A DNA stretch of 62,804 bases, the filler included. It is 5 parts of 5 records of this genome, joined end to end, with 100 filler letters (N's around TTAATTAATTAA, not from the genome) between each part and the next. Parts side by side here need not be neighbours in the genome. Positions count along the whole stretch, not along the records: positions 52,448 to 62,804 come from SRR2962707_3832; 4 more parts are not named here. The stretch is one strand, 5' to 3'. This document shows positions 46,923 to 61,188 of this stretch, piece after piece. The notes beneath the pieces were generated by a model. The model had not been told where the DNA came from. It saw only the letters and a list, made by a program, of their open reading frames with translations, and did no database searches. Within the stretch, counting starts at the first letter, position 1. Each line of letters starts with the position of its first letter. Made by a program: the position numbers and the translations under genes.

Positions 46923-48032
46923 TCATGCATCCTGCTTGGCAAGGGTGCCGACAGTGATGTCGATGGTTTGCTCGGCACCCCTGTGCAGGATCACAACAGG
47001 AGCGGTCGCCTCTGGATCGGTCGAGGCTACGGCGCGCGTCAGGTCGCGCAGTTCCGCGATGTCTGTGCCGTTAAAGGACAGGATGATATCACCCTTTTCC
47101 AGACCGGCCTTGGCGGCGGGGCTGTCGGCGGTCACCATTTCGATCATCGCACCTTTGGGCTGGTCATAACCCAGAACCTGCGCAATTTCTTCGGGCATCG
47201 GTTTGATCTGCACGCCCAGCCAACCACGGGTGATGGTGCCGTCGTCAGAAAGGTCCGCAATGACGGTCTGGATCAGATCCGAAGGCACCGCAAATCCAAT
47301 GCCCACCGATCCGCCATCAGGCGAAAAGATCGCGGTGTTCATACCGATTACATCGCCTTCGTTGTTGAACAGCGGGCCGCCCGAATTGCCCCGGTTGATC
47401 GCCGCGTCGGTCTGGATGAAATCGTCATAGGGTCCCGAGTTGATGTTGCGCGACTTGGCCGAAACGATGCCGGACGTCACCGTGCCGCCCAGACCAAAGG
47501 GGTTGCCTACGGCAACAACTTCGTCGCCCGGGCGCATTTTTTCGGAATCGCCAAATTTGATGAACGGCAGCTTCGCATCAGCAGTGATCTGGATCAGTGC
47601 CACGTCGGTCATAGGATCGCTGCCCAGCACCTTGGCGTCAAAGCTGCGGCCATCGGCCAGCTTTACGTTTACCGTTTCAGCACCGTCCACGACGTGGTTG
47701 TTGGTGACAATCTTGCCGTCCTCAGAAATGATGAAACCCGACCCGACACCATGACGCGGCTCACCGCCCTGCGGCATCATCTTTTCGAACTGGCGGCGCA
47801 GTTCTTCGGGCATGCCTTCTGGGAATTGACCGTCGAAGTCGGACGCTTCGGCCTTTGTGGTTACTTCGATAAAGACCACCGCGGGCGACACGTTTTCAAC
47901 CAGATCGCCATAGCCGCCTGCGGGCACAGCCAGCGCCGGAGTGGCGGTCGTCAGGGTTACGCCGGTCGCGCTCAGCGCTGCGATTAGTGCAGCGGACCCG
48001 GCAAGGCGTCGGTAGAGGGGGGTGGATGTCAT
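46923..48032 (-). CDS. HtrA/DegP-family periplasmic serine protease (single PDZ)
   Basis: GSGF, TNNHVV, TDAAINRGNSGGPL, RGWLGV; signal peptide. Confidence 0.93.
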   Translation of the reverse strand: MTSTPLYRRLAGSAALIAALSATGVTLTTATPALAVPAGGYGDLVENVSPAVVFIEVTTKAEASDFDGQFPEGMPEELRRQFEKMMPQGGEPRHGVGSGFIISEDGKIVTNNHVVDGAETVNVKLADGRSFDAKVLGSDPMTDVALIQITADAKLPFIKFGDSEKMRPGDEVVAVGNPFGLGGTVTSGIVSAKSRNINSGPYDDFIQTDAAINRGNSGGPLFNNEGDVIGMNTAIFSPDGGSVGIGFAVPSDLIQTVIADLSDDGTITRGWLGVQIKPMPEEIAQVLGYDQPKGAMIEMVTADSPAAKAGLEKGDIILSFNGTDIAELRDLTRAVASTDPEATAPVVILHRGAEQTIDITVGTLAKQDA

Positions 48033-48210
48033 CGTTTAACGCTCCGTTGGTGTTGTTTTGATGACCCTGATATGACGCCCCCACATCACAGAGGGGTGCG
48101 CCCCCCTATACAAATAGTTTAACAAGGTCACGACCCTTGCCCTGTGCGCCACGAAAGCTGATTTTAGGGGCACGGCCCTCGGCTGGGCCGGATTACCCTG
48201 TGAGGAAAAA

Positions 48211-48882
48211 ATGAAACTTCTTGTGGTCGAGGACGATGCGACGACGGGGGCCTATATCGCCCGCGGTCTGCGCGAAGAGGGACAGAGTGTTGATCTGGTC
48301 GCCAATGGCAAGGATGCGCTGATCCAGGCGACGGCAGGCAGTTACGATGTCCTGATCGTTGACCGGATGCTGCCCGAAATCGATGGCATGACCCTGGTCA
48401 AGACGCTGCGCGCTGCGGGCAACCGCACGCCGGTGCTGTTCCTGACCTCACTGGGCAGTGTCGAGGATCGCATCAGCGGGCTGAACGCAGGGGGTGATGA
48501 TTACCTTGTGAAACCCTTTGCCTTTGGCGAACTTTCGGCGCGGGTTGCTGCACTTGCCCGGCGCCCACAAAGTGTCGAACAGGAAACCATCCTGCGCGCC
48601 GGACCGCTGGAAATGGATCTGATCGCCCGCAAGGTCACCCGCGATGGGCAGGACATTGACCTGTTGCCACGCGAATTCGCCATTCTGGAACACCTAATGC
48701 GTCGCAAAGGCCGGGTGCAGACCCGTACGATGCTGCTCGAATCCGTCTGGGACATCTCGTTCGATCCGATGACAAACGTGGTCGAAACCCACATTTCCCG
48801 CCTGCGGGCCAAGGTCGACAAACCCTTTGACACAGAGTCGATCAAGACCGTGCGCGGCGCTGGCTACCGGATCGACGCGTGA
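48211..48882 (+). CDS. OmpR/CusR-like response regulator
   Basis: LVVEDD, DRMLP, DDYLVKPF, TVRGAGY. Confidence 0.95.
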   Translation: MKLLVVEDDATTGAYIARGLREEGQSVDLVANGKDALIQATAGSYDVLIVDRMLPEIDGMTLVKTLRAAGNRTPVLFLTSLGSVEDRISGLNAGGDDYLVKPFAFGELSARVAALARRPQSVEQETILRAGPLEMDLIARKVTRDGQDIDLLPREFAILEHLMRRKGRVQTRTMLLESVWDISFDPMTNVVETHISRLRAKVDKPFDTESIKTVRGAGYRIDA

Positions 48883-50231
48883 CCGTAGCGCGCGCATCAA
48901 TGCTCCGCTCGATGCCGCTGCGGTTGGCGGGGGGGTTGGTGCTGCTGTTTTCGGTGGTGTCGCTGCTGGGGCTGTTGGCAAGCTACATCTACACCCAGGC
49001 ATCTTTCGAACAGACCATGCGCGCCGACCTGACGCAGGACATGGCCGGTTTTAGGGCTGCACCCTCTGCCGCCGCGGTGGCCACACTGGTCGAAGCCGAA
49101 GCCGGCAGCACCGATCCTGAACGTGTCGTGCTTAGCTATTTTGCGCCCAACGGGCGGCACTACGGCAATGCCGTAGTGGCCCGCGATGCCGATGGGTATC
49201 GCATTCTGTCTGACCTGCCCGGCCAGCCCGAGATTTCGGGCCGCTATCTTGCCCTGACCGCTTCGCTGCGCGGCGGGCAGCTAACCGTGGCGCGCAGCCG
49301 CAAACAGATTGACGCGCTGCGGGGGGTTTTTCTGAACATCCTCGGGCTTAGCTTGCTGCCCACTATCCTGATTGCGCTGTCCGGCGGGTTGATTCTGGCG
49401 CGGCGCGGCGCGCGGCATGTTGCGGTGATTGGTAGGACACTGGACCAACTGACATCGGGAAACTTGGGGACGCGTGTCGGTGATGTCGGCGGCTGGTCTG
49501 ATGATCTTGCCCGGATTGGCGCAAAGGTCGATCAGATGGCGCGTTCCCAGGAAGACACGGTGGCGAGCTTGCGGCAGGTGTCTTCGGATATCGCCCATGA
49601 TCTCAAAACTCCGATCCAGCGTGTTGCGGTTCATCTGGATGAGCTGAGCCAGAGTGAGGATCTGCACGAAGACGAACGCCTTCTTGTCGACAAGGCGCTG
49701 TCAGAGCTTGATGGAATTGTATCGGTGTTTCATTCGCTGTTGCAGCTGGCCCAGATCGAAAGCGGATCGCCACGGGCGCGGTTCACGGACGTGGATATGA
49801 CGGCGCTTTGCCAGACGTTGTGCGATGTCTACGAACCGTCAGCGGCCGAAAACGGGCAAACGCTCACATGTGCTGTGCCTGACATGCCTGTGCGGCGGGT
49901 ATTGGGCGATCGCAACCTGCTGGGGCAGGTGCTGGCGAACCTGATTGAAAATGCCCTGCGCCATACGCCCTCGGGCAGCACCATTACCGTCGCCTTGTCC
50001 CAAGTCGCGACTCATGTTGATCTGTCGGTGACGGATTCCGGCCCGGGGATCCCGCCGGAGGAACGCGATCTGGTGCTGCGCCGCCTGTATCGTTTGGATC
50101 GCAGTCGGACCACCCCGGGCAACGGGCTGGGGCTATCGCTGGTGGCTAGCATCGCGCAGGTGCACGACGCCGAACTGACGCTGGCGGATGCTGGGCCGGG
50201 TCTGGGTGTGACTTTGCAGTTTCCCGGTTGA
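48879..50231 (+). CDS. HAMP-domain sensor histidine kinase
   Basis: IAHDLKTP, NLIENA, DSGPGI, GNGLGL. Confidence 0.95.
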   Translation: MTVARASMLRSMPLRLAGGLVLLFSVVSLLGLLASYIYTQASFEQTMRADLTQDMAGFRAAPSAAAVATLVEAEAGSTDPERVVLSYFAPNGRHYGNAVVARDADGYRILSDLPGQPEISGRYLALTASLRGGQLTVARSRKQIDALRGVFLNILGLSLLPTILIALSGGLILARRGARHVAVIGRTLDQLTSGNLGTRVGDVGGWSDDLARIGAKVDQMARSQEDTVASLRQVSSDIAHDLKTPIQRVAVHLDELSQSEDLHEDERLLVDKALSELDGIVSVFHSLLQLAQIESGSPRARFTDVDMTALCQTLCDVYEPSAAENGQTLTCAVPDMPVRRVLGDRNLLGQVLANLIENALRHTPSGSTITVALSQVATHVDLSVTDSGPGIPPEERDLVLRRLYRLDRSRTTPGNGLGLSLVASIAQVHDAELTLADAGPGLGVTLQFPG

Positions 50232-50241
50232 TCCATTCAAA

Positions 50242-50958
50242 TCAGGACCCGGGTTTTTGCAGCGCCTCTTTCAGGGATCGGGCTGGGGCGGCAGAACGGC
50301 GCAGATCCAGTGCGGAATGCAGATCGACCAGATGGCTGCGCATGAGGTCTTCGGCACGCTGTCCGTCGCGCACTGCCAGTGCTTCGATCAGATCGTGGTG
50401 GGCATGGCTTTCGCACAGCGCCGAATCGCGGCGCGAATACAGTGCGATGATCAGGGAAGAGCGGGCAATTAGCGCACCGATGAAGCCTGCAATAGTCGCC
50501 TGCCCGGCGATGCGGGCGATTTCTGTGTGAAACAGGCCCGACAGGTGCAGCGCCTTCCCGCGATCCCCGGCGTCCATTGCGGCATGTTCTTCTGCAATGT
50601 GGGCACGAAGGGTTTCGATTTCTGGCACGGTCGATCTGCTCGCCGCCATATGCGCTGTGCGCGGCTCCAGCAGTTCGCGCGCTTCGAAGACTTCGCGAGC
50701 TTCTTGCTGCGATGGCTGGGCGACAAATGCGCCGCGATTGCGGTGTATTTCGACCAGCTGCATATGCGCCAGGGCCTGAAGGGCGGCTCGCACGATCGTG
50801 CGTGACACGCCGTAGACCTCGCCAATCTCATCCTCGCCCAGCTTGGTGCCCGGGGCCAGCCGGTGTTCGTGAATGGCCAGTGACAACGCCTCTGCAACGC
50901 GGTCGTTGGCGGCCACACGGTTCCGTGTGATGGGCTGTACGGAATGCGGTCTGTTCAT
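50242..50958 (-). CDS. GntR (FadR/FCD) regulator
   Basis: LAPGTKL.E...GVSRTIVR...RGAFV plus FCD domain; start 50958 or 50976. Confidence 0.92.
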   Translation of the reverse strand: MNRPHSVQPITRNRVAANDRVAEALSLAIHEHRLAPGTKLGEDEIGEVYGVSRTIVRAALQALAHMQLVEIHRNRGAFVAQPSQQEAREVFEARELLEPRTAHMAASRSTVPEIETLRAHIAEEHAAMDAGDRGKALHLSGLFHTEIARIAGQATIAGFIGALIARSSLIIALYSRRDSALCESHAHHDLIEALAVRDGQRAEDLMRSHLVDLHSALDLRRSAAPARSLKEALQKPGS

Positions 50959-51038
50959 ATTCAAATCCTTGATCACGACATTTCAGAACCCTGCGCCCCG
51001 AGCAAGCGGGTTAGCACTTGAAGACAACCCGGACGGAG

Positions 51039-51050
51039 ATTGTATACAAT
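51039..51050. promoter_or_regulatory. GntR/FadR-type operator
   Basis: Perfect palindrome ATTGTATACAAT between the divergent gntR and ABC genes. Confidence 0.7.
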
Positions 51051-51192
51051 ATTGCGTCCTAATATTGAGCAGACGACTGTTGGTATGGTTTAGTTTTGGG
51101 CATTTCTGCGCACGATGGTCAGGTTGTGGGCAGCATTGTTTGCGCCCATCCCCGCTCAGCCGCTTAGGTTTCAACCATGTCATGGGGGAATC

Positions 51193-52176
51193 ATGAATCA
51201 ACCTGTCCAAGATCTTGAACTGATATCCGTCACAAAACGCTATGGCGGGACCATCGCGGTGGATGCCATCAACCACCACTTCCGGCCGGCGAGTTATACC
51301 TGCCTGCTGGGGCCCTCGGGCTGTGGAAAATCATCGACCCTGCGGATGATCGCCGGCCATGAATCGGTAAGTGACGGCGCGATCGTCCTTGCCGGGCGCG
51401 ACATTTCCCACCTTCCCCCCGCGAAACGCGGCACGGCGATGATGTTCCAAAGTTATGCGCTGTTCCCGCATCTGACAGTCACGGACAACGTTGCATTTTC
51501 GCTCAAGATGAAGGGTGTGGACGTAAAAGAGCGCCGGGCGAAGGCGTCCGAGATGCTAGAGCTGGTGGACCTTTCGGCCATGGCCGAACGGCTACCGGAT
51601 CAACTTTCGGGTGGGCAGCAGCAGCGCGTGGCGCTGGCCCGGGCACTGATCACACGGCCACAGATTCTGTTGCTTGATGAACCGTTGTCGGCGCTGGATC
51701 CATTCCTGCGCATCCGGATGCGGGGCGAGTTGCGAAAACTGCAGCGCGAATTGGGCATCAGTTTCGTGCACGTGACCCACGGTCAGGACGAGGCGCTCGC
51801 TCTGGCAGATGAAATCGTGGTGATGAACAACGCGGTGATCGAACAGGCCGGGCCCGCGCGGGATGTCTTCAACGCACCAAAGACCAAGTTCGTGGCGCAG
51901 TTCATGGGCGGGCACAATGTGATTGCCCTGCCTGCGGGGCATTTCGCCATACGCAGTGACGCCGTGACCGTCGGCGCCCCGGACAGCGGCGTAGAGGGGA
52001 ACGTGACTGGCATCGAATACCAGGGCACGCATGTGTCTGTGCTGGCCCGCATCGCCGGAGATCAGGAAATAACGGCCATGGTGTCGGAAAACGAATTCTT
52101 CGCCCACCCGCATACCCCGGGCGACCGTGTCGGTCTGAACTGGGATGCCAAGAACCTGCACAAACTGACCGCGTAA
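51193..52176 (+). CDS. ABC transporter ATPase (PotA-like)
   Basis: GPSGCGKS, LSGGQQQR, LLLDEP, TOBE tail. Confidence 0.93.
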   Translation: MNQPVQDLELISVTKRYGGTIAVDAINHHFRPASYTCLLGPSGCGKSSTLRMIAGHESVSDGAIVLAGRDISHLPPAKRGTAMMFQSYALFPHLTVTDNVAFSLKMKGVDVKERRAKASEMLELVDLSAMAERLPDQLSGGQQQRVALARALITRPQILLLDEPLSALDPFLRIRMRGELRKLQRELGISFVHVTHGQDEALALADEIVVMNNAVIEQAGPARDVFNAPKTKFVAQFMGGHNVIALPAGHFAIRSDAVTVGAPDSGVEGNVTGIEYQGTHVSVLARIAGDQEITAMVSENEFFAHPHTPGDRVGLNWDAKNLHKLTA

Positions 52177-52206
52177 GGCGGCGATACGTCTGACAAGGAG
52201 AAAGAC

Positions 52207-52347
52207 ATGACAACGACCAATATTTCCCGCCGTGGTATCCTTAAGGGGGGCGCTGCCTTTGCCGCTGGGTCAACCCTTGGCGCGCCGATGATCTGGGCAC
52301 AAAATATCAAGGATGTGACCCTGCGCCAGTTCGGCACCGGTGTGTCC
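52207..52347 (+). CDS. Tat-exported solute-binding protein, N-terminal fragment
   Basis: ISRRGILK twin-arginine signal; AAGGAG RBS; truncated by the gap. Confidence 0.75.
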
Positions 52348-52447
52348 NNNNNNNNNNNNNNNNNNNNNNNNNNNNNNNNNNNNNNNNNNNNTTAATTAAT
52401 TAANNNNNNNNNNNNNNNNNNNNNNNNNNNNNNNNNNNNNNNNNNNN
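52348..52447. other. Assembly spacer with TTAATTAATTAA
   Basis: Linker at 52392-52403. Confidence 0.99.
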
Positions 52448-53521
52448 GTGCGGGGCTTTGCTGATTTTGACGGACCGCTTTATTATGCACCTACCGGTTT
52501 CATCGACCATGCCGATGATCCCAATACACTCCCGCTGGCTGGATCGCGCCGCGGCTTTTCGGCCCTTGAAATTATTCGTCGCCGTGAAGGCGGCGGTGCC
52601 GAAAGCATGATCCTGCCACTCCTTGCCCTTGAAGGCTGGGTTCAAAATAGCGGGCGTGTTGATGAAATTAACAATGTGCTTGATCGTTTAATGACCAAGC
52701 GCGCCGATTTTGCCGGACTTGATATGGCTTCATGCCACGTCATGGGCATTGTTAATGTGACACCTGACAGCTTTTCTGATGGCGGGGATTACAACACGAC
52801 AGACCAGGCGATTGCCCGGGGTCGTGAACTGGCCGACTTTGGCGCATCAATCCTTGATATCGGCGGGGAATCCACCCGCCCGGGAGCGGATGACGTTACC
52901 GAGGCTGAGGAAATCGATCGTGTCGTGCCCGTGATCCGTGCCTTGGCCGAGAAGGGACATGTGGTTTCAATCGATACGCGCCACGCCAATGTGATGGAGG
53001 CAGCGATCAATGCTGGTGCTGCCATCATTAATGACGTCACCGGGCTCGAGGGCGATGAACGGTCGCTCGAGGTGGCGGCACGTTTGGGGGCACCTGTAAT
53101 GCTGATGCATATGCAGGGCGAACCCGGCACCATGCAGGACGATCCGCAATATGATTGTGCCGTTCTTGATGTGTACGACTATTTGCTCGATCGCATCGAA
53201 AGTTGCGAACGGGCCGGGATATCGCGCGACAAGATTTGTATTGATCCGGGTATCGGATTTGGCAAGACACTGTCACATAACCTTGAGTTACAGTCGCGGC
53301 TGGCGATTTTCCATGGTTTGGGATGCCCGGTTTTACTTGGAACGTCGCGCAAGTCGTTTATCGGGAAAATTGACCCCAAAGCGGATCCAAAACAAAGGCT
53401 CGGTGGATCAATTGCATCTGTCGTCAATGGATGGCGGCACGGGGCGCAGATAATGCGCGTTCACGATGTTCAGGAAACTGTTCAGGCCATCTCGGTCGCA
53501 AGTTCGACGTCTCTGGTATAG
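52448..53521 (+). CDS. folP: Dihydropteroate synthase (start at or beyond the contig edge)
   Basis: MGIVNVTPDSFSDGG, GGESTRPG, IDPGIGFGK, SRKSF, RVHDV. Confidence 0.97.
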   Translation: MRGFADFDGPLYYAPTGFIDHADDPNTLPLAGSRRGFSALEIIRRREGGGAESMILPLLALEGWVQNSGRVDEINNVLDRLMTKRADFAGLDMASCHVMGIVNVTPDSFSDGGDYNTTDQAIARGRELADFGASILDIGGESTRPGADDVTEAEEIDRVVPVIRALAEKGHVVSIDTRHANVMEAAINAGAAIINDVTGLEGDERSLEVAARLGAPVMLMHMQGEPGTMQDDPQYDCAVLDVYDYLLDRIESCERAGISRDKICIDPGIGFGKTLSHNLELQSRLAIFHGLGCPVLLGTSRKSFIGKIDPKADPKQRLGGSIASVVNGWRHGAQIMRVHDVQETVQAISVASSTSLV

Positions 53522-53784
53522 GAAGCTCAGCGGACCTTTGCTTCCTGTATAGGTTGTCATTTTCGCCCGATTGATTAAAAGCAAGACCATTCAACATTTT
53601 GGGGATGTATATCCTTTTGGTTGGGTCTTGCTTTTTTTATATTTAGAATCTGGCATTTTCTGACCTTTTGCGGTTGAGGCTTGCGCATTTGCAGGCCGCA
53701 CCACATACCAAAGAGTGAAATAAACAAAGTGGCGCAAAGTCACGCTTATTGGTTGAATAAACGAGCAGCTGCAAAGGTCTGTAC

Positions 53785-54579
53785 ATGAACGGAATTGTTG
53801 ACCTGACCGAGGTCGGAAACAAAAGTATGACATCAAGTCGAAGTCTGACGGCGCAATGTGTGTTTGTCGTCGAAGACAACACCGATCTTAATAAGGATCT
53901 GTGCGAGTATCTTGAGATGTGTGGCTTTGACGTGATTGGTTGCGAAACCGGTGCGAGCTTTTTTCGCGCGCTTAAAACCAAACAGCCTGATGCGGTCATC
54001 CTTGATATCATGCTGCCCGATGCTGATGGCTATGATCTTGCCAAATACGTCCGCCAGAACATTGATTGCGGCATCATGATGCTGACGTCCCTGTCAGGGA
54101 TGGATCATCATCTGACAGGCTACAAGTCAGGTGCAGACGTCTATCTGACCAAAGACAGTCCTTTGTCGGTAATCGAAGCCGCTTTGCAGCCTTTATTACG
54201 CCGTTCCTCGCGTGCAGACAGTGACGCCGATGAGGGGGCTGATTCCTCTGGTATGGAAGCGGGCTGGGTTCTTGATCTGCTCAATTGGACATTGGTTAAT
54301 CCGCTTGGAAAGTCGGCATCCTTGACCGCAACCGAACGGACAATCATCAAGTTATTGATTGACGCGAACGGGGCATGGTTGACCCGGCCGGAAATCGTTA
54401 TCGCCTTGGGTAAGGCCGATACAGCTGAAAACTGCCGCAACCTTGATACGGCAATCCGGCGTGTGCGCCAGAAGGTTCTCAAGGAAATTGGTGAAGAGCT
54501 TCCGGTACGCACAGCATATGGTCGTGGCTATGCCTTCACATCGCTTGGCGCCGTTTCCGGTGAAGCAGAAAATCTCTGA
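53785..54579 (+). CDS. OmpR-like response regulator (REC plus wHTH)
   Basis: VVEDN, ILDIMLPD, YLTK, LTATE, RNLDTAIRRVR, AYGRGY; start may be 53827. Confidence 0.9.
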   Translation: MNGIVDLTEVGNKSMTSSRSLTAQCVFVVEDNTDLNKDLCEYLEMCGFDVIGCETGASFFRALKTKQPDAVILDIMLPDADGYDLAKYVRQNIDCGIMMLTSLSGMDHHLTGYKSGADVYLTKDSPLSVIEAALQPLLRRSSRADSDADEGADSSGMEAGWVLDLLNWTLVNPLGKSASLTATERTIIKLLIDANGAWLTRPEIVIALGKADTAENCRNLDTAIRRVRQKVLKEIGEELPVRTAYGRGYAFTSLGAVSGEAENL

Positions 54580-54593
54580 CGCTTGGTGCGCCA

Positions 54594-56684
54594 TCACGCA
54601 AGTGGTGCCGCGCTGTCCTGATTGGAAGTTTCACACGGTAGCAGCACACACAGCGCAATTCCCGTCGGCCCCAGATCACGTAATTTGATCGAGCCGCCGT
54701 GCGCGTCAACAATGCGTTGTGAAATATGCAGGCCAAGCGCACTTCGCAGGGCCTTTGTTTCCATCTCGCGGCGAAACAGCGCATTTCCAATCAAGCGGAT
54801 TTCATCGCTATCAAGTCCTTCGCCCTGACAGGGTATTGATATTTCCGCCAGCCAGTTACTTTGCGCGCGCGCGGTAATATGGATTGGCTTTCCATGGGCA
54901 AAACGCCGTGACGTTTCGACCAGGTTGGTCATCGCCAGACCAATCAGTGTTTCATCGATATAGGCTTCAACACCGTTGGTTCCCGTACAGGTCACCAGAA
55001 TTTCGGCATCGTCGCGTGTCGTATTGGCGACGAAATCATTCATGAAATGATCCAGCCCGACAAGCTCACGCGCCAACGAGAATTCCTTGTCGTCAATACC
55101 ATCCTTGCTTAGGAAAATATCAACCAGACGGGCAAGTTTTCGGGCCTGAAGCTCAATGCGTTTTAGCCGGTTCTGAATATCATCGCTGTGATCTTGTAAA
55201 CGGAGCATCAGCATTTCTGACGAACGCTGAATAACCGCAAGCGGGGTTCGGAATTCATGCGACAGCATTGAAATCAACTTGCGCTGTTCACCGACAAGCG
55301 ATGTTGTTTCTTCGGCTCTGGTCGATGCAAACACCTGTTCCCTGTCCATTTGGGTCAGACGTATGGCCATCAATATGCCCATCGCGATGATGTGGAAAAT
55401 GAAGGTGAATTGATGGAGGCCGATGCGTGTCGGGGTTACCTCGATAAGTCCCGCATGGGCCAATTGCAACATGATGGCAGGGCCGCAAGGCAAGGCAAGG
55501 GCTATCAAATACGCCCAAAGCGTCTTGTTTCTGATATCTGCGGCAAGCCTTTTGACAAGAACCAAACAGGCGCAGGCCATGAAAAGTGCGACAGACGGAA
55601 CGATATAGGTGCCAAACACGGTATAGAGTTCATTGGTCGTACCAATGAGGAAACTTAAAATGACGATGCAGTAGGCACATCCGAGCCAAAACAAAATTGG
55701 TGTGCGTTGGCGAAATTCAAGAATATGTATCCATAAAAAGACAACGGCAGCCTGTGAAACGATGTTGGTGGTCCCAATGAGAAAATCATTCATCCACGGG
55801 ATTTCAGGGCGCAGCTGACTTAATCCGACACCATTTACAAGTGATATGAGCATGCCAGCACACGCAATCCCGATGCCATAGCTGACAACAACCGCATCGC
55901 GGGCGATAAGCCCAAGGCTGAAATACGTAATGCCAAGGGTTAGAAACACCCCAAAGAAGATGTTTGTTGCCAGATTGCGAAGCGTCATCGACGAAATAAG
56001 GTCCTTGGCCTGCCAAAGTGTGACAGTTAGCAAGTTCGTACTGTTACTTTGTACCCGGATAAACAGGTGATACGCACCCGCATCAAGTTTCGGCCAAGAT
56101 GCGACGTGCGTGCCGCTGGTAAAGGGACGCTTGTTTGCTGGAATGCGGTCGCCCATGCTTTCCTGCCAAATGGCATCGGAAAGCTTGGCCGTTGCGATAT
56201 CCTCAAAAAGATACAGATCTATATGATTAAGATAGCTTGGATTGGCCTCAATGTATGGGGGGGCGGTCAACATCTGATCGACGCTGAAATCGATCCTGTA
56301 CCAGATGATATCTGACGTATACCCAAATGATGGGATTGATGCGCTTTGCTGAAAGTCGTCAAACGGCAGTTGGCGAACATCATCAAGTGACATCTGCTGG
56401 CTTTGGTCGACATACCATGAAAGATAGGGTGTCAGATCAAGCTTGCCGGGAAGATCACCGTTTAAAACAATTTTATCGGTGTGCCCGGTGGTTGGTGGCG
56501 TAGTCCCATGCGCGCACACACCATTGGGCCCACCAATCATTGCGACGATCAGGGCGACGAACAAGATGAACAAAATGCGCGGTAACTTGGTGCGTATCAA
56601 GGTGGCCACGGGCGTTCGGCCCACGTTTTGACGTGCGGTTAAGACTGTCCACATATGACGGCGGAATGATGCAAAGGCGGTCAT
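54594..56684 (-). CDS. 7TM-DISM sensor with an intact H-box but a degenerate HATPase domain (probable pseudokinase)
   Basis: DISMED2-like SFGYT..IWYR and YLNHIDLY, 7 TMs, SHEFRTPL; N-box NLVETS, G1 CQGEG, G2 SALGL. Confidence 0.85.
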   Translation of the reverse strand: MTAFASFRRHMWTVLTARQNVGRTPVATLIRTKLPRILFILFVALIVAMIGGPNGVCAHGTTPPTTGHTDKIVLNGDLPGKLDLTPYLSWYVDQSQQMSLDDVRQLPFDDFQQSASIPSFGYTSDIIWYRIDFSVDQMLTAPPYIEANPSYLNHIDLYLFEDIATAKLSDAIWQESMGDRIPANKRPFTSGTHVASWPKLDAGAYHLFIRVQSNSTNLLTVTLWQAKDLISSMTLRNLATNIFFGVFLTLGITYFSLGLIARDAVVVSYGIGIACAGMLISLVNGVGLSQLRPEIPWMNDFLIGTTNIVSQAAVVFLWIHILEFRQRTPILFWLGCAYCIVILSFLIGTTNELYTVFGTYIVPSVALFMACACLVLVKRLAADIRNKTLWAYLIALALPCGPAIMLQLAHAGLIEVTPTRIGLHQFTFIFHIIAMGILMAIRLTQMDREQVFASTRAEETTSLVGEQRKLISMLSHEFRTPLAVIQRSSEMLMLRLQDHSDDIQNRLKRIELQARKLARLVDIFLSKDGIDDKEFSLARELVGLDHFMNDFVANTTRDDAEILVTCTGTNGVEAYIDETLIGLAMTNLVETSRRFAHGKPIHITARAQSNWLAEISIPCQGEGLDSDEIRLIGNALFRREMETKALRSALGLHISQRIVDAHGGSIKLRDLGPTGIALCVLLPCETSNQDSAAPLA

Positions 56685-58771
56685 GACGGCGCACCATCGT
56701 CATCTTCTGTTCGGAGCTTTTTTCGCGATACATGGGGGGCGGCCAAACCAAAGAAGTTTTGACGGGACGCTTTGACCGTTTCTTCCCGGTTATAGGGAAT
56801 TTTGATCATTACCGTTGTGCCGGATGTCTCGCCAACACTGATCGACATTGATCCGTTATGGGATTGCACAATGCGGTTGGTGATATGCAGGCCCAGACCG
56901 ACACCTTGTGTGACGCCTGCGTCGCGTCCACGGTAAAACGCGTTGGATACATTCGTCAGATCGTCAATGGGAATGCCCGGTCCGGCATCTATAACACGGA
57001 TATAGACAAATCCGTTCGACGACCGATTGCATGCGACCCAGACTGGAGCGTCGGGGGCGTATTTACGGGCATTGTCGATCAAGTTGATGATCGCGCGTTC
57101 AAACAGAATGCGGTCAATATCGACAATGGCAAAATCGATATTTTTCAAGCTGACTTTCTGGTCCGGGATTTCACGGTTCCGTCGATTGATCAAATCATGT
57201 AGCAACTGATCAATGTTGGTCGGCTGCAAGGATGTTGTGAAATTCGCACTGTCGAGCGTCTCCTTGGTCAAAAAGGCATCGACCAACCCCGAAAGCTGAC
57301 CGGCATTCCCACGAATGGTGGCAAGACGGCTGTGAACAGGGGCGGGCTCATTGCGCAAATGTAGACCGAGAATTTCTGCTGATCGCTGAATGATCGCCAG
57401 AGGTGTTCGAAATTCGTGCGACAGCATGGTTATGAAAGTCCGCTGTTCGCCAGCAAGCTGATCGGCCCGCGCATTGGTTTGATGCGCGTTAGTCCAATTG
57501 TAGGTCAGTCTCTGGGTGCGATAGGCCATCGCAATTGCAACCATCACAAGATGTATCGACGAGCTAAGCGGGTAGACCTTGGTTGTGAAGGCCGTGATCG
57601 GCAGGATACCCAGCAGTGTCAAAACATGGATGTTGGCCGCAAGGGTTGGCAAAGCAAGTGCGATGAAAAAGAAGCTGTTTGATGCCAGACGTCTTTCACG
57701 ATAGCTGACGTAAATCAGATACATCAAAAGCGTGAACAGCAAAATCACATTGGGAATAAAGAAGATCTGCGTGAAATAGATATAGGCATCCGATATCGCA
57801 GTGACCGAACCGATCATCGCCAATATGGAAAAGGCCATCATCACCCGAAACAGAACCGGGTTATAGTGATCAAGTTTGACGATATGGGTCCACATCGCGA
57901 CACTGGCGCCCAAGGCAAACGCGGTTCCTGTTCCGGTAATAAGGTCGCTGGCAAGTGGCCAAATCCCCTTTAGCAGAAGCTGGGCATATCCTGACGTACC
58001 AAGGTTGAACAGAAAGACAGATAAAACATATCCGCTGTACCACAGCACCGATTTGTCGCGTGATATGATGCCAAAGGTCAGATAGACACCAAACCCGATC
58101 AACAGGACCCCCAAAAAACTGCTTTCAACAAGGTTATGTTCCTCGGTGTCGGAAACAAGCTCCGCCTCGGGGTATAGTTTGGCATGGAAAACATGGGCGC
58201 TGTTGGTGCGCACACCGATCATCAACCAATAGTGTCCTGATGGTAAATCCGGCCATTCTGACAAATGCCGGAGGCTGATCAAACTGTCTTTCGTGTTGGG
58301 GATCCGGTCACCAACAACATTTTTCCAGATGACATTGCGCGTCTCATCGTCAATCACGGTCAGGCGGATCTCGTTGAGATAGGGCTCTCCCAATTCGATG
58401 AAGGCCCGTGAAATGTCATTGCCTTGCGGCGCGGTAAGCGAAAAGGCCAGCCGATACCAAATAACGCGTGGGGTGTAACCGGGCCCTGCGGTGCCGGCAA
58501 CGGGTTCAAATTCAGAAGACGGAATATCAATCAGTTGGGCAGGATCGGTGACGTTGCGATCAGATGTCAGGCGCTCCATAAACCGGTTTAGATCGATACT
58601 GGCTGTCGCGCCATTTGCCGGCAACACAAGGTGTGCCATGTCGGTCCGTGCCGATGCAGGCGGCGAAAACCATGTGATGGATGCGACAAGGGCAATCGTC
58701 AGGACACTTATGACGTCGCGCCAAGTCAACATCTGGCGAAAATCGCGCAAAGCGCCCCCAATTTCAGACAA
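56681..58771 (-). CDS. 7TM-DISM sensor histidine kinase
   Basis: GPGYT..IWYR, PYLNEI, 7 TMs, SHEFRTPL, NLIDNARKY, DAGPGI, FYRG, GVGLGL. Confidence 0.9.
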   Translation of the reverse strand: MSEIGGALRDFRQMLTWRDVISVLTIALVASITWFSPPASARTDMAHLVLPANGATASIDLNRFMERLTSDRNVTDPAQLIDIPSSEFEPVAGTAGPGYTPRVIWYRLAFSLTAPQGNDISRAFIELGEPYLNEIRLTVIDDETRNVIWKNVVGDRIPNTKDSLISLRHLSEWPDLPSGHYWLMIGVRTNSAHVFHAKLYPEAELVSDTEEHNLVESSFLGVLLIGFGVYLTFGIISRDKSVLWYSGYVLSVFLFNLGTSGYAQLLLKGIWPLASDLITGTGTAFALGASVAMWTHIVKLDHYNPVLFRVMMAFSILAMIGSVTAISDAYIYFTQIFFIPNVILLFTLLMYLIYVSYRERRLASNSFFFIALALPTLAANIHVLTLLGILPITAFTTKVYPLSSSIHLVMVAIAMAYRTQRLTYNWTNAHQTNARADQLAGEQRTFITMLSHEFRTPLAIIQRSAEILGLHLRNEPAPVHSRLATIRGNAGQLSGLVDAFLTKETLDSANFTTSLQPTNIDQLLHDLINRRNREIPDQKVSLKNIDFAIVDIDRILFERAIINLIDNARKYAPDAPVWVACNRSSNGFVYIRVIDAGPGIPIDDLTNVSNAFYRGRDAGVTQGVGLGLHITNRIVQSHNGSMSISVGETSGTTVMIKIPYNREETVKASRQNFFGLAAPHVSRKKLRTEDDDGAPS

Positions 58772-58982
58772 TTAAACGAGTCTATTTTTGATAGCGTTTT
58801 TTTTTGGTCAGGTCATCGGTTTTATCAGAATAGTCTGATGGGCGCGTGTTAACGGAATGGTCGCCAACGAGGCGTTAAAATGTGTCACTTGCCGGTAGCA
58901 TTGAAACGTCACTTTGATATAACCGGCAGTCAGGATTTATGGACCGGGCGTTAAAACCGGCACACAGACAGAGAACACAAGC

Positions 58983-60332
58983 ATGAGCCGCAAATATTTT
59001 GGCACCGACGGCATTCGCGGAACCGCCAATACCGCACCCATGACCGCCGAAGTCGCACTAAAGGTCGGTATGGCCGCGGGCAACTACTTCACCCGTGGTG
59101 ATCACCGCCACAAAGTTGTGATCGGCAAGGACACGCGTCTGTCTGGCTACATGCTTGAACCAGCGTTGGTGGCGGGCTTTACGTCCATGGGCATGGATGT
59201 GATGTTGGTCGGGCCTATGCCGACCCCCGCTGTTGCCATGCTGACCAAATCGATGCGTGCAGATATCGGTGTGATGATTTCAGCATCCCACAATCCGTTT
59301 CAGGATAATGGCATCAAGCTATTTGGCCCGGATGGTTTCAAACTGTCTGACGAGGTGGAACTTGAAATCGAAGCGTTGATGGACAGTGATCTGTCGCATA
59401 AGCTCGTTCCGGCGAATGCCTTGGGCCGGGCGCAGCGTATTGACGATGCCCCCGGGCGCTATATCGAAGCTGTGAAATCTTCGCTTCCGGGCAGTGTCAC
59501 TCTTGAAGGTCTTCGTATCGTTCTTGATTGTGCCAATGGTGCGGCTTATTCCGTCGCGCCAAAGGTGCTGCGTGAACTTGGTGCCGAAGTGATTGAAATC
59601 GGCACGAAACCCAACGGTCTGAACATCAATGACCAATGCGGTTCGACCCACACCAAAACCATGTGTGATCGGGTCCTGTCTGAAAAGGCCGACGTCGGGA
59701 TTGCCCTTGATGGGGATGCGGATCGTATTCAGATGTGCGATGAAAAAGGTCATCTGATCGACGGTGATCAGTTGATGGGGCTTGTGACCACCCATTGGAA
59801 ACGCACCGGTCAGCTGCGCGGCAATGCGCTGGTGGCGACCGTGATGTCCAATCTGGGGCTTGAACGCTATCTTGAAAGCAATGGCTTGCGTCTGATCCGC
59901 ACCAAGGTGGGTGACCGCTATGTGGTTGAACAGATGCGTGCACTTGATTGCAATGTCGGCGGTGAACAGTCGGGCCATATTGTTCTGTCTGATTTTGCCT
60001 CAACCGGCGATGGTCTTCTGGCCGGGCTGCAGGTCTTGGCCGTTCTGGCATCGCGCAGCGGGCCGGTGTCTGAAATGAGTCGCGTGTTTGAACCGTTGCC
60101 GCAAATCCTTAAAAACGTGCGCTATACCGCCGGGGCCGATCCATTGTCGCAAAGCCGCGTGATTGACGCCATTTCTTCGGCTGAGAAGGCCTTTAACGGT
60201 GATGGACGGGTTTTGATCCGTAAATCCGGGACAGAACCGCTGATCCGTGTCATGGCCGAGGGCGATGATGCGGTAAAAGTCGAACAGATTGTCGATGGTA
60301 TCGTGGCTGAAATCACCGCCGTTGCAGGCTGA
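58983..60332 (+). CDS. glmM: Phosphoglucosamine mutase
   Basis: [36 protein letters not shown]. Confidence 0.98.
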
Positions 60333-60390
60333 TCAACAGCGAATTCTGCAAAATACTTACTTTGGCTGCATTGCGTTGGGGAGGATGATC

Positions 60391-61188
60391 ATGAAGGGTC
60401 GTGTCTTGATTATTGCCGGATCGGACTGTTCTGGCGGGGCCGGTATTCAGGCCGATATCAAATCGGTGACGGCTCTTGGTGGTTACGCCGCAACGGCAAT
60501 TACCGCTCTGACGGTGCAAAACACCACCGGAGTCTTCGACGTTTTGGGGGTTTCGCCTGAAATGATTGTTCATCAGGCGACCGTGACTATTGATGATATC
60601 GGTGCGGACGCGATTAAAACCGGAATGCTCCATAGTGTGCCGGTGATCGAAGCTGTGGCGGAATTTATCAAATTAAAATGTTCGGGTATTCCAATCGTAA
60701 TTGACCCTGTGATGGTATCGCAAAGCGGTTCACGGTTGCTTCAGGAAGACGCGGTCGAAGCCTTGATAACCCATATGATCCCCCTTGCAACGGTCCTGAC
60801 CCCGAATATTCCCGAGGCAGAAGTGCTATCGGGCATGAATATTTACAGCGAAGGTGATATGATTGCTGCGGCGCACAAAATCGGAGAGTTGGGCGCAGAG
60901 GCGGTGTTGATCAAAGGTGGTCACGCCGAGGGCGATAAGATTGTTGATATTCTTTGGCGTCGCGACGGGGACATCGAAGGGTTTGAAGGTGATCGCATCC
61001 CGTCTGAAAATAATCATGGTACGGGCTGCTCGCTTGCAAGTTCGATTGCAACCGGGCTGGCACAGGACATGGGACTGAGTGACGCGGTGGCGCGTGCACG
61101 GGCCTATGTTCGCGAAGCCATCCGCACCGCCCCGAATTACGGCAAAGGAAACGGTCCGCTAAACCACGCGCACCCTGTCACCGGATAA
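60391..61188 (+). CDS. thiD: HMP/HMP-P kinase
   Basis: IAGSDCSGGAGIQAD, TPNIPE, KGGH, HGTGC. Confidence 0.96.
   Translation: MKGRVLIIAGSDCSGGAGIQADIKSVTALGGYAATAITALTVQNTTGVFDVLGVSPEMIVHQATVTIDDIGADAIKTGMLHSVPVIEAVAEFIKLKCSGIPIVIDPVMVSQSGSRLLQEDAVEALITHMIPLATVLTPNIPEAEVLSGMNIYSEGDMIAAAHKIGELGAEAVLIKGGHAEGDKIVDILWRRDGDIEGFEGDRIPSENNHGTGCSLASSIATGLAQDMGLSDAVARARAYVREAIRTAPNYGKGNGPLNHAHPVTG

Follow-up and report, generated by a model that had tools for sequence, protein, structure and literature searches.

The locus described here lies in a stretch of 62,804 nucleotides of DNA (the window) from a marine Thalassospira, and it encodes two paralogous sensor histidine kinases of the 7TMR-DISM type, hereafter HK1 and HK2, together with a single response regulator. 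The features on which the argument turns are listed below with the evidence for each in brackets; DHp stands for the dimerisation and histidine phosphotransfer domain.

56681..58771, minus strand: HK1, 7TMR-DISM sensor histidine kinase with canonical boxes (open reading frame, Pfam, residue check)
54594..56684, minus strand: HK2, paralogous 7TMR-DISM sensor with an intact H-box and degenerate ATP-binding boxes (open reading frame, Pfam, alignments)
53785..54579, plus strand: OmpR/PhoB-type response regulator, convergent with the kinase operon (open reading frame, Pfam)
56681..56684, minus strand: operon junction, where the HK1 stop and the HK2 start overlap in ATGA (junction sequence)
55206..55268, minus strand: HK2 DHp helix-1 block MLSHEFRTPLAVIQRSSEMLM, common to HK1 and unlike the outgroup after the H-box
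54732..54926, minus strand: former nucleotide pocket of HK2 (N587...T591; I-P-C619-Q-G; R-S-A-L-G-L) (alignments, residue check)

Both kinases are open reading frames (ORFs) of 696 aa, HK1 with a predicted TTG start (an alternative ATG lies at codon 14) and HK2 with an ATG start, and at the junction ...gcgccgtcATGAccgcc (tcATGAcc) the TGA stop of HK1 and the ATG of HK2 share four positions. Their equal length is a coincidence, since the TTG start of HK1 is only predicted and the orthologs range from 656 to 820 aa as called. The regulator ORF has 264 aa, its stop converges with that of HK2 with 14 bp between them, and its true start is more likely Met15 (53827), because the receiver domain begins only at residue 26. 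The original prediction, made from the letters of the DNA, had described two 696-aa paralogous sensors sharing ATGA at 56681-56684 beside a convergent response regulator, and the ORF list, the junction sequence and the 14-bp gap bear this out. Its guess of a Thalassospira origin was also right, as the nearest loci are those of T. lohafexi (98%) and T. lucentensis DSM 14000 (97%), and all motif strings that it quoted are found in the translations, where residues and coordinates were checked.

HK1 and HK2 are 30% identical over 592 columns (BLASTP, E 6e-84), which is far beyond chance, and Pfam assigns the same four domains to both. These are 7TMR-DISMED2 (72.7 bits in HK2 and 22.4 in HK1, which is marginal at a cut-off of 22), 7TMR-DISM_7TM (41.3 bits in HK2, 63.1 in HK1), HisKA (37.9 bits in HK2, 35.3 in HK1) and HATPase_c (37.1 bits in HK2, 77.6 in HK1). 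Neither kinase has a Response_reg match in Pfam, and both end about 10-30 residues past the HATPase_c match. The regulator matches Response_reg (66.0 bits) and Trans_reg_C (42.5 bits), and it is the only regulator at the locus. In NCBIfam all three proteins stay below the cut-off of every model, and so belong to no named system there; the best equivalog for the regulator is RpaB, at 115.5 bits against a cut-off of 330.

In GHKL ATPases Mg-ATP is bound by the N-box Asn (Mg/ATP contact), the G1 Asp (adenine contact) and the G2 glycines. The key residues of HK1 are H452, N567, D595 and G623/G625/G627, and its N, G1, F and G2 boxes are canonical. HK2 keeps H476, E477 and T480 of the HExxT motif, while T591 stands for the Asn, C619 for the Asp and R647/A649/G651 for the glycines, the G2 box of the window reading R-S-A-L-G in place of G-x-G-x-G. 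The loss of the N-box Asn, the G1 Asp and the G2 glycines from the downstream kinase, as first proposed, is thus confirmed. Sequence matches in the PDB agree with this assignment: the best match of HK1 is KdpD (6lgq_C, E 4.3e-21) with all boxes intact and that of HK2 is SrrB (6paj_A, E 4e-10), two E-values that differ in query, as the cytoplasmic part alone was used for HK1 and the whole protein for HK2, and the alignments set T591, C619 and R647/A649 of HK2 against the N-box Asn, the G1 Asp and the G2 Gly.

An AlphaFold2 model of HK2 (46-row alignment, mean predicted local distance difference test 81.8, predicted template modelling score 0.62) places a periplasmic domain rich in beta structure at 72-224 and seven helices at 226-410, followed by a single long helix at 418-495 that runs into the DHp domain and then by an alpha/beta catalytic-like domain. 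Model confidence is low at 640-647, which is the former ATP lid and G2 region. When compared to the PDB with Foldseek, the model finds histidine-kinase cores, with ZraS (9jfj_A, E 1.2e-9) at the top and the RetS kinase region (6dk7_B, E 2.2e-8, target TM-score 0.60) at rank 28. HK2 thus retains the kinase fold in the model, and the residues for ligand contact are gone.

The degenerate state is not confined to the window. A genome scan with one genome per species gave 54 loci, 31 of them of the Thalassospira type, and HK1, HK2 and the convergent regulator occur together in 31/31 of these. The order thiD-glmM / HK1 HK2 / regulator / folP is found in all 30 loci that are long enough (L022 is a 3.7-kb contig, and in L029 folP is cut by the contig end). 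With the window added, 32 rows per paralog could be compared. In HK1 the N-box Asn, the G1 Asp and the G-x-G-x-G of G2 are kept in 32/32. In HK2 the N-box residue is Thr in 26 rows (window, L001-L025) and Asn in six (L026-L031), the G1 Asp is absent from 32/32 (Cys in 23, Tyr in the three loci L020-L022, His in the six loci L026-L031), and G2 is intact in L031 only. The phospho-acceptor His is present in 31/32 HK1 rows (L002 has Tyr), and H476, E477 and T480 are invariant in HK2 (32/32), which supports the proposal that the downstream kinase retains the phospho-His and HExxT. HK2 is a single full-length ORF in 32/32. A separate search, with HK2 as the query, yielded 33 proteins that are 46-98% identical to it, those with a named source all being from Thalassospira, and six more at 34-36%; the 33 have Thr at the N-box position and Ala at the centre of G2 (33/33 each), with Cys at G1 in 31 and Tyr in two. 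In the outgroup kinases (Azospirillum, Magnetospirillum and others) the Asn and Asp positions are canonical, 25/25.

Strain-specific decay or sequencing error is ruled out as the cause, given that the G1 Asp is missing in 32/32 HK2 copies, and the comparison of orthologs that had been suggested as a check finds the degenerate boxes conserved genus-wide. The replacement residues are themselves fixed in the crown rows of HK2 (Thr in 26/26, Cys in 23/26), and this fixation points to a new structural constraint and not to drift. Furthermore, the ATGA junction is present in 18/31 loci and the window, and the remaining 13 have a candidate start that either overlaps the stop or lies no more than 4 nt beyond it. 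Such a junction fits production of the two proteins at a fixed ratio by co-translation, and HK1 and HK2 are presumably coupled in translation.

Two of the HK1 orthologs depart from the rest. In T. lucentensis DSM 14000 (L002:4914-7004) codon 452 encodes Tyr for His (CAC to TAC) in a protein that is otherwise 98% identical, which makes this the sole HK1 among the 32 rows lacking the phospho-acceptor residue; a natural knock-out of the kinase, a state like that of DivL and a sequencing error are possible explanations. In the metagenome-assembled genome Thalassospira sp. UBA1131 (L017:4865-6935) HK1 is split into two overlapping ORFs of 299 and 480 aa, probably by a frameshift or an assembly error.

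Selection on both kinases is purifying. Nei-Gojobori medians of the ratio of nonsynonymous to synonymous substitution rates (omega), taken over 21 pairs with whole-gene dS of 0.15-1.2, are alike in HK1 and HK2 for the sensor (0.18 and 0.17), the seven-transmembrane (7TM) region (0.19 and 0.16), the DHp domain (0.036 and 0.042) and the whole gene (0.16 and 0.17), and differ for the catalytic and ATP-binding (CA) domain (0.067 and 0.145). The regulator has an omega of 0.089 (73 pairs). A maximum-likelihood codon fit (GY+F3X4) to the 30 genomes with both kinase genes at full length gives 0.067 for HK1 and 0.062 for HK2 in the DHp domain, and 0.087 and 0.140 in the CA domain. The DHp domain of HK2 is as constrained as that of the live kinase HK1, and its CA domain is somewhat relaxed, approximately 1.6- to 2-fold compared to HK1, and far from neutral. 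The dN/dS check that accompanied the original prediction thus comes out as purifying selection on HK2, at 0.17 for the whole gene and 0.14 for the CA domain. With the conserved loss of the boxes, the purifying selection, the retained His and HExxT and the 31/31 linkage, the case for HK2 as a conserved pseudokinase within a three-gene system is well founded.

How this state may have arisen can be read from a tree of 86 rows (quick IQ-TREE search, LG+G4, support by the Shimodaira-Hasegawa-like approximate likelihood ratio test, SH-aLRT, alone), from which three fragments (L017_HK1, L022_HK1, L045_o1) were left out. HK1 (30 rows) and HK2 (32 rows) each form a clade with an SH-aLRT of 99, the two are joined at 100 against 24 outgroup rows, and their internal topologies mirror each other. 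Read at face value, the tree implies a single tandem duplication in the Thalassospira ancestor followed by co-inheritance. On the same reading the G1 Asp would have been lost first, on the HK2 stem, an ATP-lid insert and a partial erosion of G2 would have arisen in the L026-L030 clade, and the crown clade, which includes the window, would have exchanged the N-box Asn for Thr and lost two of the G2 glycines. The HK2 copies of L026-L030 (e.g. L026:6938-9064) keep the N-box Asn and have His at G1. Their insert lies between the F and G2 boxes, is about 20 residues long and contains a conserved P-x-R-F-Y-x-K-K motif; it marks another route of ATP-lid remodelling than that of the window's clade.

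The wider family was represented by its best 150 members, of which 128 had a recognisable H-box and could be scored and 22 could not. Among the 128, 115 are canonical, eight have Asn at G1 with the other boxes intact and five are degenerate. Since all five degenerate relatives are of the HK2 type, and are the five best matches, the pseudokinase state is specific to the Thalassospira HK2 lineage within the scored part of the family. The eight relatives with Asn at G1 (P0127, P0133, P0156, P0191, P0196, P0217, P0220, P0222) could carry a tolerated variant or be further, independent kinase-impaired sensors. In addition, two Azospirillum genomes (L039:6743-11075 and L042:139-4325) have two adjacent 7TMR-DISM kinases, both with canonical boxes, which is an independent tandem duplication without degeneration. 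At the one Azospirillum locus inspected among 23 (L035:5924-8890) the outgroup kinase is an orphan lacking an adjacent regulator. It comes immediately after a gene of the MgtC family, with napD and a gene for a molybdopterin oxidoreductase as neighbours; as a functional clue this context gives no hint.

Likeness between the two kinases is unevenly distributed. Within genomes, HK1 and HK2 are 66% identical over the linker and DHp helix 1 and 43% over helix 2, with 27% in the sensor, 23% in the 7TM region and 29% in the CA domain. The block after the His reads A-[IV]-I-Q-R-[SA]-x-E in both kinases, and the outgroup has A-S-I-D-S-A-A-Q there. The helix-1 stretch after the His carries regulator specificity. 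For HK853, the title of PDB entry 4jas shows that three of the rewired positions lie in helix 1, downstream of the His. Among the identical-residue codons of the DHp block, 7/15 differ synonymously in the window and 1 to 11 across genomes. Gene conversion as the source of the likeness is ruled out in most genomes, where 3-11 of 12-15 codons differ synonymously, and this divergence indicates that the likeness of helix 1 is kept by selection and not by recent gene conversion. L011, with 1/15 codons synonymously different, is a possible exception. On the side of the regulator, helix 1 (DLN[KR]DLCEYLE[MI]CGF) is almost invariant genus-wide, and the receiver active-site residues E30, D31, D74, T101 and K123 are kept in 31/31 copies.

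The invariant H, E and T, the likeness of helix 1 and the tight junction suggest that HK2 is a kinase-dead co-sensor that still docks on a shared regulator. We hold it to be somewhat on the likely side that this conserved pseudokinase tunes the regulator as a signal-gated phosphatase or phosphate drain. In the proposed mechanism HK1 and HK2, made from one operon, would form a genus-wide signalling module with the convergent OmpR-type regulator, in which HK1, as the sole ATP-using kinase, would autophosphorylate on H452 and then phosphorylate the regulator. HK2 would descend from the lineage of HK1 by one tandem duplication followed by the loss of nucleotide binding, and would retain a periplasmic DISMED2 sensor of its own, the 7TM bundle, a DHp helix with the His and HExxT, and a folded catalytic-like domain. 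With its kinase activity gone, it would, gated by its signal, dephosphorylate the regulator that HK1 phosphorylates or drain phosphate from it. HK2 would in this way pull against the push of HK1, and the output would be set by both, each with a different periplasmic input. HK2 possibly pairs with HK1 in addition.

Several points weigh against the phosphatase reading. We infer the inability to bind ATP, the phosphatase activity and the regulator choice of HK2 from its sequence, and likewise a shared regulator and any contact between HK1 and HK2; heterodimerisation, the acceptance of phosphate by HK2 from HK1 and carbohydrate ligands are, as in the original prediction, proposals. The N-box Asn is still present in HK2 of L026-L031, the six loci that branch deeply, and L031 has an intact G2 as well; some nucleotide binding may persist in these lineages. 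The tree comes from a quick search with one support measure and has flagged long-branch joins, and the omega values are approximate, as dS is near 1 in the pairs compared. A pure DHp phosphatase is not obviously in need of a constrained CA-like domain (omega 0.14). The likeness of helix 1 is partly that of a generic HisKA H-box. DHp helix 2 is 43% identical between the paralogs, with each form conserved in its own clade. According to the specificity-rewiring literature, helix 2 also contributes to regulator and dimer specificity, and because it has diverged HK2 might prefer another partner. The divergence could reflect homodimer insulation or a different partner, and it counts against a model in which the two kinases share everything. 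Moreover, 62.8 kb of the genome are in view, and an orphan regulator may be encoded elsewhere.

The main rival to the phosphatase reading, which we consider possible though the less probable course, is an obligate HK1:HK2 heterodimer with a mixed DHp four-helix bundle, that is, a two-input sensor with one active site in which the catalytic domain of HK1 would phosphorylate either His476 of HK2 in trans or, in cis, the His of HK1 itself. A stop and start that overlap or abut, as in 31/31 loci, fit equimolar co-synthesis, His476 is invariant in 32/32 though HK2 is predicted to be unable to charge its own His, helix 1 of the DHp domain is 66% identical between the paralogs, and the CA-like domain of HK2 is constrained (omega 0.14), as if packed against a partner. 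However, identity between the paralogs has fallen to 43% in helix 2 and the loop that connects the helices, each clade has its own fixed form, and it is in this region that paralogous kinases, reportedly from work of the Laub laboratory, normally evolve homodimer specificity. A related and rather doubtful conjecture is that the pair is a bacterial counterpart of the eukaryotic kinase/pseudokinase receptor heterodimers, in which the live domain would charge the His of the dead partner in trans; if it were true, HK1:HK2 would be one asymmetric receptor that computes on two periplasmic ligands. Prediction of the complex of HK1 425-672 with HK2 449-690 gave scores of 0.59, 0.57 and 0.57, with 0.40, 0.38 and 0.00 for the controls, and is taken neither way.

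The third option, a non-catalytic modulator of the RocA type or of the RetS 'mechanism 3' type, is distinctly unlikely. HK2 would bind HK1 through the membrane or DHp regions and shift its kinase/phosphatase balance, with its own His and HExxT idle. Operon linkage with HK1 fits this, and there are precedents, as the kinase core of RetS is described to block the autophosphorylation of GacS (PMC5992135). Nevertheless, the H-box H, E and T are invariant in 32/32 and the omega of the DHp domain (0.04-0.06) is as low as in the active paralog, a constraint that exceeds what a scaffold role alone predicts, and the membrane domains of the paralogs are just 23% identical.

That HK2 is still an active kinase, with nucleotide bound in a non-canonical way, is improbable. 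The fold is retained, conservation extends to a GG-S-I that resembles G3 and to much of the N-box helix, the deep-clade copies keep the N-box Asn, and Asn at G1 with the rest intact in 8/128 representatives indicates that some variation at G1 is tolerated. Against this, contacts to nucleotide or Mg have disappeared together at three separate sites in the window's clade (N-box Asn, G1 Asp, two G2 Gly), and what these residues do in GHKL ATPases is well known. RetS, which has no G-boxes, is also reported to be unable to autophosphorylate (PMC5992135). Finally, a decaying, functionless duplicate or unrecognised pseudogene is highly improbable: catalytic residues are lost and the CA omega is approximately 1.6 to 2 times that of HK1, but the frame is open and full length in 32/32 genomes spanning 34-98% identity, the whole-gene omega of 0.17 equals that of HK1, and the replacement residues are fixed (Thr in 26/26 crown rows, Cys in 23/26).

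HK1/HK2 works most like RetS/GacS and RocA/CovS/CovR, and it is a member of neither and of independent origin. RetS is described as a 7TMR-DISM sensor with a degenerate HATPase domain that has no G-boxes, does not autophosphorylate and keeps HExxT in its H-box, a transmitter-phosphatase motif that the kinase-dead RetS uses against GacS (PMC5992135). The analogy with RetS of Pseudomonas aeruginosa drawn in the original prediction is apt, as both proteins combine a 7TMR-DISM sensor and a degenerate HATPase domain with a retained HExxT. There are, however, clear differences: HK2 has no receiver domains, so a phosphate siphon of the kind that runs through REC2 of RetS is impossible; it is sister to its own partner HK1 (SH-aLRT 100) within a Thalassospira-only clade, in a tree of HK1, HK2 and outgroup kinases, and is no ortholog of RetS; and it is co-operonic with its partner, which is a plain kinase and not an unorthodox one.

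RocA/CovS/CovR of group A Streptococcus is a three-component system of a membrane pseudokinase, an active kinase and a regulator, in which the predicted His of RocA is dispensable and the CA domain can be removed, as described in PMC7028121. Like HK2, RocA is a membrane pseudokinase with a degenerate CA domain that works with one active kinase and one regulator, whereas the H-box and the CA-like domain of HK2 are strongly constrained. PMC7028121 describes no adjacency of rocA to covS, and HK2 adjoins HK1. RocA also differs in having six transmembrane segments and no DISMED2.

DivL has Tyr in place of the phospho-His, and its chain 4q20_A is matched in the PDB by the sequence of HK1 as well as that of HK2. 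The comparison with DivL, which had also been proposed at the outset, is weaker than that with RetS, since HK2 keeps its His; moreover, DivL is cytoplasmic and PAS-based and not of the 7TMR-DISM type. It stands as a case, in Caulobacter crescentus, of a histidine-kinase-like protein repurposed to regulate another kinase (PMC4211667). AbrC1/AbrC2/AbrC3 of Streptomyces coelicolor is a three-component system of two histidine kinases and one response regulator (PMC3098853), but of another family and architecture, and no degenerate kinase is mentioned in the available text of that source. The solved kinases KdpD (6lgq), SrrB (6paj), CpxA (4biu), EnvZ (4kp4) and HK853 (3dge) share the DHp and CA fold and the H-box, and HK2 lacks the Asn, Asp and Gly that the canonical ones align at N, G1 and G2. 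A literature search, which left most subscription journals outside its coverage, found no tandem pair of a live and a dead 7TMR-DISM kinase paralog, and the literature on DISM receptors searched together with Thalassospira held no mention of the genus.

Few pseudo-histidine kinases are known (RetS, RocA, DivL and apparently PsmA). Each has been studied in one organism, and none shows how a kinase came to be dead. At the present locus the live and the dead copies are direct paralogs that lie head to tail at one regulator locus in 31 species, and the order of residue loss is readable from the tree, subject to the reservations stated above, as a natural series of intermediates in the birth of a histidine pseudokinase. 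The series runs from deep clades with a G1 lesion and an intact N box, through the lid insert of about 20 residues in one clade, to a fully degenerate crown. If HK2 is a signal-gated phosphatase or a heterodimer partner, the locus would be a clean minimal model for two extracellular inputs acting on one regulator, and it would also be a model for how cross-talk between duplicates is avoided or, as apparently in this case, retained. That Thalassospira is a non-model marine genus limits the immediate impact.

Three further sites were marked around the genes, all of them as candidates.

54577..54593, minus strand: weak terminator candidate, a hairpin of 6 pairs followed by a T-rich run, directly after the HK2 stop and overlapping the regulator stop
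58910..58933, no strand assigned: conserved 24-nt block in the divergent glmM/HK1 intergenic region (31-row alignment)
53646..53665, no strand assigned: conserved block of 20 nt, roughly 120 nt upstream of the regulator gene (31-row alignment)

Terminator-like sites number 11 in the scanned region, barely above the 6.0 +/- 2.4 of shuffled sequences. A sigma-70 promoter scan of 53400-59100 gave 0 sites against 6.7 expected in shuffles, and an Rfam scan of 52000-60500 at E up to 0.1 returned no family. The two conserved blocks, which match neither Rfam nor sigma-70, are possible operator or promoter elements.

The cassette of three genes (53500-58999) has a guanine-plus-cytosine (G+C) content of 0.45-0.54, compared to 0.55-0.64 in 48000-51999 upstream. 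A recent island insertion, as the lower G+C might suggest, is ruled out by the position of the cassette between glmM and folP in 30/30 loci that are long enough, and its low G+C may stem from membrane-protein composition more than from recent transfer. NCBIfam models recognise the flanking genes folP (52448-53521), glmM (58983-60332) and thiD (60289-61188) at their cut-offs. The folP ORF abuts a run of N at its 5' end, and its DHPS (dihydropteroate synthase) match starts only at residue 98, which makes the called start an artefact. Farther upstream, and judged from translation, an ORF of 450 aa at 48879-50231 (plus strand) resembles another, unrelated histidine kinase, and is followed by a GntR-type-like regulator at 50242-50976 (minus strand) and an ABC-transporter-ATPase-like protein at 51115-52176 (plus strand).

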